Shown: piece by piece, positions 6,601-8,211 of the stretch | How positions within the stretch are numbered: position 1 is the first letter of the stretch | Layout of the letters: every line of letters starts with the position of its first letter | DNA from: Escherichia coli | GTDB lineage: Bacteria; Pseudomonadota; Gammaproteobacteria; Enterobacterales; Enterobacteriaceae | Assembly (NCBI RefSeq): GCF_003334355.1 | Contig: NZ_QOWP01000004.1 | Length of the DNA stretch: 64,000 nt | Reading direction: 5' to 3' (one strand) | Program-made: the position numbers and the translations under genes | The notes under the pieces: generated by a model | The model's database searches: none | What the model was told of the DNA's origin: nothing | Seen by the model: only the letters and a program-made list of their open reading frames with translations

Positions 6601-8211
6601 ATGATGAGCAATGTTAAGAAAAAAGATGTGCCGCTGATAAGCATCAGCCTGGTGGCCATTCTTTTCATCGCAGCTGCATTAAGCCTTTTCCCACAACAAT
6701 CGGCCGACGCGGCCAACGCAATATACACTTTTGTTACGCGTACGTTAGGTTCCGCCGTACAGGTATTGGTTTTGCTGGCAATGGGACTGGTGATTTATTT
6801 AGCCACCAGTAAATACGGCAATATTCGTCTTGGCGAAGGAAAACCGGAATACAGCACGCTCTCCTGGCTGTTTATGTTTATTTGTGCCGGTTTAGGTTCT
6901 TCTACGCTTTATTGGGGGGTTGCTGAATGGGCCTATTATTATCAAACACCTGGATTAAATATCGCACCGCGTTCACAACAGGCACTCGAATTTAGCGTTC
7001 CCTACTCTTTCTTCCACTGGGGCATCAGCGCCTGGGCAACTTATACGCTGGCCTCATTAATCATGGCTTATCACTTTCATGTGCGGAAAAACAAAGGTCT
7101 GAGCCTTTCCGGCATTATTGCTGCTATTACCGGCGTTCGCCCGCAAGGCCCATGGGGAAAACTGGTCGATTTGATGTTCCTGATCGCCACTGTCGGCGCA
7201 CTGACCATTTCCCTTGTTGTTACCGCAGCAACCTTTACCCGTGGGCTTTCCGCGCTGACCGGTTTACCCGATAACTTCACCGTGCAGGCATTTGTGATCC
7301 TGCTTTCCGGCGGCATTTTTTGCCTAAGCTCGTGGATTGGTATCAACAACGGTTTGCAACGTCTGAGCAAAATGGTTGGCTGGGGCGCGTTCCTGCTGCC
7401 ATTACTGGTGCTGATTGTCGGCCCAACCGAATTTATTACCAACAGCATCATCAATGCCATCGGCCTGACCACGCAAAACTTCCTGCAAATGAGCTTATTC
7501 ACCGATCCGCTTGGCGATGGTTCATTTACCCGCAACTGGACCGTTTTCTACTGGCTGTGGTGGATCTCATACACCCCTGGCGTAGCAATGTTTGTCACCC
7601 GCGTTTCCCGCGGTCGTAAGATTAAAGAAGTTATCTGGGGACTGATCCTCGGCAGCACCGTCGGTTGCTGGTTCTTCTTTGGCGTAATGGAAAGCTATGC
7701 CATTCATCAGTTTATCAATGGCGTAATCAACGTCCCACAGGTGCTGGAAACACTGGGCGGCGAAACAGCTGTACAGCAAGTTCTGATGTCGTTGCCAGCC
7801 GGTAAATTGTTCCTCGCCGCATACCTGGGCGTGATGATTATTTTCCTTGCCTCGCATATGGATGCAGTGGCCTACACCATGGCGGCGACCAGTACGCGTA
7901 ATCTCCAGGAAGGTGACGATCCTGACCGTGGGCTGCGTCTTTTCTGGTGCGTGGTGATCACTCTGATCCCGCTTTCCATCTTGTTTACCGGTGCTTCGCT
8001 GGAAACGATGAAAACCACCGTCGTGCTCACAGCCCTTCCCTTCCTCGTCATTTTACTGGTGAAAGTCGGCGGGTTTATTCGCTGGCTGAAACAGGATTAC
8101 GCCGACATTCCGGCTCATCAAGTTGAACATTATCTCCCGCAGACACCGGTTGAAGCCCTGGAAAAAACGCCAGTGCTCCCTGCGGGAACCGTATTCAAAG
8201 GCGACAACTGA
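6601..8211 (+). CDS. yeaV: BCCT-family transporter YeaV (probable carnitine/quaternary amine transporter)
   Basis: 536-aa ORF from ATG 6601 with AGGAG SD 8 nt upstream; BCCT-like polytopic protein. An internal TTG at 6766 is an alternative (shorter) start but would remove the first TM helix. Confidence 0.85.

Follow-up and report, generated by a model that had tools for sequence, protein, structure and literature searches.

The yeaV gene of the Escherichia coli strain analysed here is, with high probability, an intact ancestral gene that starts at ATG 6601 and encodes a 536-residue transporter of the BCCT family with 12 transmembrane (TM) helices, and the short form of YeaV known from K-12 is the outcome of a 225-bp deletion. 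The value of this result lies in the comparison with K-12: a deletion, and not a mis-called start codon, explains the short protein. The start of the 536-residue protein is in itself ordinary for this sequence and already annotated. The window, that is, the whole stretch of DNA that was analysed, comprises 64,000 nucleotides of contig NZ_QOWP01000004.1 (assembly GCF_003334355.1). Positions are those of the window unless another locus is named, and the genes, codons, signals, repeats and encoded helices located in it below lie on its plus strand.

Results

Translation start of yeaV

The yeaV coding sequence (6601-8211) was delimited on the basis of the ORF list, the profile match, the predicted structure and the PGAP annotation. 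Reading of the frame, which is closed by an in-frame TGA (6595-6597) one codon before the gene, gave ATG 6601 as the first possible start. The Shine-Dalgarno (SD) sequence AGGAG (6589-6593) is separated from this codon by a 7-nt spacer, and its predicted pairing with the 3′ tail of the 16S rRNA has an energy of -7.4 kcal/mol. The original prediction, that the ORF is open from ATG 6601 behind an AGGAG SD, was borne out, and the translated N terminus is the one that it had quoted. The sole nearby alternative start is ATG 6604, in frame and the second codon of the ORF. Further downstream, the TTG at codon 56 (6766-6768), which encodes Leu56 here, was found by alignment with MG1655 to be the annotated start of a 481-residue K-12 product. 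This TTG has only an AGG 2 nt upstream, with a predicted pairing energy of -3.8 kcal/mol, in agreement with the earlier statement that it has no obvious SD.

The 600 bases around the yeaV start are 100% identical to those of strain KL53, and RefSeq/PGAP gives the 536-residue protein WP_000987525.1 with exactly the start ATG 6601 in KL53 and in an O157:H7 strain. Because PGAP already annotates this protein from ATG 6601, there is nothing to correct for this sequence. Direct data on the yeaV start site (TIS profiling or an N-terminal peptide) were found in the literature for no strain, and yeaV, b1801 and P0ABD1 are absent from the supplements of one N-terminomics paper.

Conservation and structure of the N-terminal 55 residues

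In a multiple alignment, 14 orthologues of 528 to 548 residues from 13 genera all align from Met1 of YeaV. The set consists of proteins from Klebsiella, [Enterobacter] lignolyticus, Salmonella/Citrobacter, Shimwellia, Serratia, Yersinia, Xenorhabdus, Crenobacter, Pseudomonas, Aeromonas, Cupriavidus, Achromobacter and Helicobacter. It was found that residues M1, D9, L12, P31, A38, T46, G50 and Q54 are nearly invariant and that residue 2 is variable (M, L, Q, F or S). Because residue 2 varies among the orthologues, the first ATG alone is common to all of them, which favours ATG 6601 over ATG 6604. Translation from ATG 6604 would be feasible in that this codon is in frame at a workable spacing of 10 nt from the SD, with equal predicted SD pairing, but the orthologues have L, Q, F or S at position 2 next to a nearly invariant Met1, the 7-nt spacer of ATG 6601 is nearer the usual optimum, and position 1 is used by both PGAP and the NCBIfam model NF007412. 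We consider a start at 6604 quite improbable; since the product would be only one residue shorter, function would be unaffected by the choice.

At the nucleotide level, CAGGAG followed by the ATG is kept in E. coli, Klebsiella, Serratia and Pseudomonas, and the DNA further upstream diverges. For codons 2-55 the dN/dS ratio was 0.16 relative to Klebsiella and 0.19 relative to Pseudomonas, compared with 0.04 to 0.12 (0.04 relative to Klebsiella) for the remainder of the gene, which is under tighter constraint. To judge from these ratios, codons 2-55 are under purifying selection, which is weaker than that on the remainder of yeaV. All four of the differences seen within E. coli in codons 1-55 are synonymous.

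Residues 12-30 (6634-6690), assigned as TM1, give the strongest Kyte-Doolittle window of the whole protein (mean 2.72) and are preceded by a KKK(D) cluster at residues 6-9, and residues 49-67 (6745-6801), assigned as TM2, give the second strongest. An AlphaFold2 model of YeaV (pLDDT 77) has the corresponding helices at residues 7-29 and 31-69, ahead of the core, and codon 56 falls in the middle of the second of these. According to hydropathy and model, the N-terminal 55 residues begin with a short, basic tail in the cytoplasm, which is followed by TM1, a connecting helix and the initial half of TM2. The hydrophobic helix that had been proposed for the first ~55 residues is thus found at residues 12-30, and the claim that a shorter start would delete the first TM helix is supported, with the addition that a start at TTG 6766 would also drop half of TM2.

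A search of PDB sequences with residues 1-55 alone gave no match even at E <= 10, the segment being too short by itself, and the homology of this region is visible only in full-length or 130-residue alignments. In such alignments the solved BCCT proteins DddT, CaiT, TmaT, BetT and BetP align from YeaV residues 9-33. The similarity to the DAAN-containing N terminus of CaiT, which the original prediction had proposed, was recovered by the alignment of YeaV 21-130 with E. coli CaiT 19-132 (E = 5e-17). BCCT homologues therefore do not lack the region encoded by 6601-6765, since both the orthologues and the solved structures reach residues 9-33. Taken together, the orthologues, the SD, the selection on the N-terminal codons, the BCCT alignments and the NF007412 and PGAP assignments support the prediction that YeaV starts at ATG 6601.

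The conserved core of the protein lies downstream of TTG 6766, given that the generic BCCT profile TIGR00842 begins at residue 55, and in one untargeted study (PMC10971958), the pattern of metabolite uptake shifted upon knockout or overexpression of what is presumably the truncated K-12 gene. Both observations would fit the possibility that TTG 6766 is a real internal start, used alone or together with 6601, which yields a shorter functional isoform based on the 10-helix LeuT-fold core. Such an isoform is highly improbable, because the putative SD of TTG 6766 is weak and too close at the spacing and energy given above, TTG is a rare start codon, and initiation would occur in the middle of a helix that is predicted to span the membrane. 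Furthermore, codon 56 is an ordinary Leu codon of a conserved VLVLL motif, and TM1 and TM2 are retained in every solved BCCT structure. We therefore retain ATG 6601 as the start of yeaV.

Family placement of YeaV

YeaV belongs to the BCCT family, with a score of 548 bits against TIGR00842 (cutoff 407.55), and a PF02028 domain was precomputed for the 536-residue E. coli YeaV cluster representative P0001, which is listed as 100% identical to the query. The AlphaFold2 model has the BCCT architecture of 12 TM helices, with TM1 and TM2 before a 10-helix LeuT-type core. With this model, a Foldseek search gave alignments of about 483-517 columns to CaiT, TmaT, BetT and BetP, at TM-scores of 0.81-0.85. 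The TM8 signature of the family, which we take to be W-T-x-x-Y-W-x-W-W as in PROSITE, is found at YeaV residues 312-321, and W313, T314, Y317, W318, W320 and W321 are invariant in 15 of 15 sequences.

The NCBIfam equivalog NF007412 / PRK09950 has 536 positions, of which YeaV covers 1-536 with 1033 bits (cutoff 647), whereas the K-12 product matches profile positions 56-536 only. The TIGR00842 match extends over YeaV residues 55-499 (6763-8097), and because that model starts at residue 55, the K-12 product looks complete to it. The 55 missing residues are revealed only by the 536-position YeaV-specific model.

The 225-bp deletion in the K-12-type allele

The YeaV protein of strain MG1655 (b1801, NP_416315.1) has 481 residues, the first of which is encoded by the TTG that corresponds to 6766, so that the statement in the original prediction of a shorter YeaV in some K-12 annotations, starting near this codon, proved to be correct. 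Alignments and genome probes identified a 225-bp segment (6504-6728) that is present here and deleted in the K-12-type allele. This segment starts 97 bp upstream of the gene and extends through the SD and the ATG to codon 43. In alignments with the window the gap is a clean 225 bp in both MG1655 and Ecol_AZ155, with boundaries that are ambiguous by 1 nt (a T). The K-12 frame contains a TAA three codons upstream of the junction and then no ATG, GTG or TTG before the TTG equivalent to 6766. Because the DNA for the true start is missing in K-12, the 481-residue entry is the longest ORF left and not a mis-chosen start. MG1655 YeaV and the YeaV of the window show no differences from residue 56 (K-12 residue 2) onward, and the MG1655 locus has the same order as the window, dmlR-dmlA-yeaV-yeaW-yeaX-rnd.

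It might be argued that the DNA of K-12 is no different here from that of this strain and that the 481-residue entry is simply a wrong start that could be extended to 536 residues, given that the K-12 entry does begin at the TTG equivalent to 6766, inside TM2 and without TM1. This alternative is next to impossible, since MG1655 lacks 6504-6728 altogether, and the in-frame TAA near the junction, together with the lack of any earlier start codon, makes an extension impossible. The junction recurs in BL21 and Ecol_AZ155, whose truncated allele is labelled by PGAP as a pseudogene ('missing N-terminus'). The MG1655 record still gives a 'putative transporter' of 481 residues, despite the pseudogene label on the identical allele elsewhere.

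The deletion therefore remains as the explanation of the short K-12 protein. A single event of 225 bp would have taken out the SD and the start codon together with TM1 and some of the upstream region, and the first usable start codon of the remaining K-12 ORF would be the TTG within TM2. An A-to-G difference at 6499 was considered as a part of the same event and rejected: it is also found in strain HS-02, which keeps the upstream part of the segment, and it is therefore a polymorphism separate from the deletion.

Distribution of the two alleles

The occurrence of the two alleles was quantified by probing 5,426 complete E. coli genomes. The probe 6401-7000, which indicates presence of the locus, matched 4,373 genomes; the 225-bp segment 6504-6728, which indicates the intact allele, matched 2,931; and a 56-bp probe across the K-12 junction, which indicates the deletion allele, matched 1,441. 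The last two counts sum to 4,372, one short of the 4,373 genomes with the locus, and the deletion allele is present in about one third of the complete genomes with the locus, including MG1655, TG1, J53, BL21 and C41(DE3). Identity to the junction probe was at least 99% in 1,416 of the 1,441 matches, and a junction this uniform suggests that the deletion occurred once. The deletion would then have become fixed in a large E. coli lineage that includes the K-12 and B strains.

No match to 6401-7000 was obtained in 1,053 of the 5,426 genomes, and in strain H40 the first 69 bases of this probe were matched and nothing more. Two further lesions of the gene were observed. In strain HS30-1 (L012 2530-4788), an IS1A element is inserted in a yeaV remnant that is already deleted for the 225 bp, which amounts to a second inactivating hit. 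In HS-02 (L015 2487-2730), where the upstream part of the segment is still present as mentioned above, the gene has no start ATG, and low-complexity runs of A, T and C stand in place of codons about 10-43; either an artefact of the assembly or an independent lesion could account for this.

The region upstream of yeaV

A terminator scan located an intrinsic terminator with a 10-bp stem and a T-run after dmlA (6369-6398), which implies that transcription of yeaV depends on a separate promoter within 6399-6600. A consensus scan of 6300-6900 detected no sigma-70-like promoter. A repeat search found three copies of a 15-nt direct repeat, TAACATACAAATAAT, in 6493-6551, the other two copies being 80% identical to it. 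The first copy lies within a block that is conserved with Klebsiella and that is cut by the K-12 deletion; the deletion cuts this first copy and removes the other two, so that two and a half of the three are lost. To judge from the sequence, the 15-nt repeats may be a regulator-binding or promoter element, and we regard them as a candidate for such a function.

Two potential hairpins, CTGGC-AAAA-GCCAG and GGGC-TTTTAT-GCCC, are situated directly 5′ of the SD (6557-6588). Both stems are kept in Klebsiella, with different loops. Folding of these leader hairpins was only marginally better than that of shuffled sequence (z = -1.98), and an Rfam scan of 6340-6800 gave only a sub-threshold match, which was on the dmlA terminator.

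Gene neighbourhood and presumed substrate

The gene order in the window, dmlR-dmlA-yeaV-yeaW-yeaX, also flanked by rnd, is that of the E. coli yeaV locus. The yeaW gene (cntA; 8243-9367 in the KL53 annotation), for the oxygenase subunit of carnitine monooxygenase, is 31 nt downstream of yeaV, and yeaX (cntB; 9423-10388 from the ORF list and annotation) encodes the reductase subunit of the same enzyme. The annotated yeaW start is ATG 8243 (374 aa, MSNLSPDF...); the longest yeaW ORF opens at TTG 8123 (414 aa, 8123-9367), within the 3′ end of yeaV.

The order LysR - D-malate dehydrogenase - BCCT - Rieske oxygenase - (aldehyde dehydrogenase) - reductase is kept in Klebsiella, Serratia and Pseudomonas. 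In these three genera, a 482-residue aldehyde dehydrogenase is encoded between the oxygenase and the reductase (L004 6788-8236, L006 6809-8257, L008 6920-8368), and the E. coli window has only a 55-nt gap at this position (9367-9423). The absence of the aldehyde dehydrogenase from the E. coli cluster had already been noted in PMC11353897. As in a cnt-type cluster, yeaV lies between the D-malate dehydrogenase gene and cntA, beside a LysR gene. By analogy with such clusters, YeaV is most likely the uptake carrier that would feed YeaW/YeaX (CntA/CntB) with carnitine or a related quaternary amine. Untargeted metabolomics with yeaV wild-type, knockout and overexpression strains suggested several unrelated candidate substrates (PMC10971958); the strains were presumably derivatives of K-12, in which case they carried the truncated yeaV.

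Discussion

The consequences of the deletion have to be considered in view of what is reported for K-12 and B strains. According to Piskol et al. 2024 (PMC11353897), E. coli K12, B and BL21 fail to grow on carnitine, carnitine monooxygenase activity is missing from BL21 extracts, and public expression data are said to contain no conditions with substantial cntA transcription. We confirmed the deletion allele in MG1655 and BL21, strain B itself being outside the genomes inspected. A review table lists E. coli K12 as positive for the conversion of carnitine to trimethylamine (TMA), but this entry was rejected because the source cited there used K12 DNA only as a qPCR standard.

The deletion may affect expression of the whole yeaVWX unit, a hypothesis that has to be weighed against the negative outcome of the promoter scan and the lack of a malic semialdehyde dehydrogenase gene in the E. 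coli cluster. We put forward tentatively, as a possibility that is still on the doubtful side, that it silences or cripples the entire unit in K-12, the B strains and their lineage and that E. coli strains whose yeaV is intact import carnitine and form TMA. If this is true, the removal of the transporter start, TM1 and probably the operon control region would explain why carnitine growth or monooxygenase activity is not seen in K-12, B and BL21.

Conversely, the K-12-type allele might still be expressed from the residual upstream DNA and give a working transporter, the deletion then being without phenotype. In line with this, the ORF after the junction is intact in MG1655 and BL21, as are yeaW and yeaX; the truncated allele persists in 1,441 genomes with a junction identity of 99% or higher; genomic SELEX placed yeaV among the CRP targets in K-12; and the metabolomics study (PMC10971958) reports yeaV-dependent uptake changes. 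However, the SD is lost with the deletion, as are TM1 and half of TM2, and of the three upstream repeats only half a copy is left. The carnitine phenotypes of K12, B and BL21 and the lack of monooxygenase activity in BL21 extracts (PMC11353897) likewise speak against a working allele. The further IS1 insertion in the truncated gene of HS30-1 points to decay, and PGAP treats the truncated allele as a pseudogene. It is therefore rather unlikely that the truncated allele still provides a working transporter.

Annotation pipelines already recognise the truncated allele, and the literature searched is silent on it: a full-text search for yeaV found no remark on the truncation, and the deletion is not mentioned in the accessible parts of PMC10971958 or PMC11353897. 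K-12 and B-strain studies of yeaV or yeaVWX use the truncated allele. Likewise, the Keio and ASKA yeaV reagents are derived from K-12 and stand for a gene from which the true start, TM1 and some of the upstream DNA are missing. In surveys of the gut microbiome, E. coli cntA/yeaW is scored as a potential for TMA formation; the transporter gene is truncated in about a third of the complete genomes with the locus. If the proposed effect on the whole unit is true, O157:H7 and many commensals would be examples of carnitine-using, TMA-making E. coli with the intact allele, and in such surveys TMA-producing E. coli would be meaningfully marked by the yeaV allele rather than by whether cntA/yeaW is present at all.

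Comparison with known systems

The protein described here and WP_000987525.1 / NF007412 / PRK09950 are identical in sequence, start and length, with no difference between them. The closest solved relative in sequence is DddT (PDB 21fh, 21ff and related entries; E = 3e-100 over YeaV 16-498), a differently named protein whose match range takes in YeaV TM1 and TM2.

E. coli CaiT (PDB 2wsx, 3hfx and 2wsw), which exchanges L-carnitine for gamma-butyrobetaine as an antiporter, has the same fold as YeaV, 2wsw being the best structural match with a TM-score of 0.84; the DAAN motif after TM1 is common to both proteins, and the full-length sequences match with E = 8e-70. However, the identity is only about 28%, and caiT sits in the cai/fix operon, whereas yeaV is in the monooxygenase cluster. 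The possibility that YeaV is the orthologue of CaiT was ruled out by its score against the CaiT equivalog NF002887, which at 346 bits is below the cutoff of 541, so that YeaV is a CaiT paralogue.

The system most similar in gene context is that of Acinetobacter baumannii, in which Aci01347 is the BCCT transporter of the carnitine degradation cluster and uptake of carnitine, which is energy-dependent, and of choline has been shown experimentally. Like yeaV, the Aci01347 gene has a D-malate dehydrogenase gene on one side and cntA on the other, in a cluster under LysR control. The Aci01347 protein is predicted to have 12 TM helices, and an identity of 56% to the E. coli orthologue has been reported. 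Aci01347 has 551 residues, compared to 536 for YeaV, and the substrate of YeaV, in contrast to that of Aci01347, is predicted from synteny. Furthermore, the E. coli cluster is without the hydrolase and malic semialdehyde dehydrogenase genes of the A. baumannii cnt cluster.
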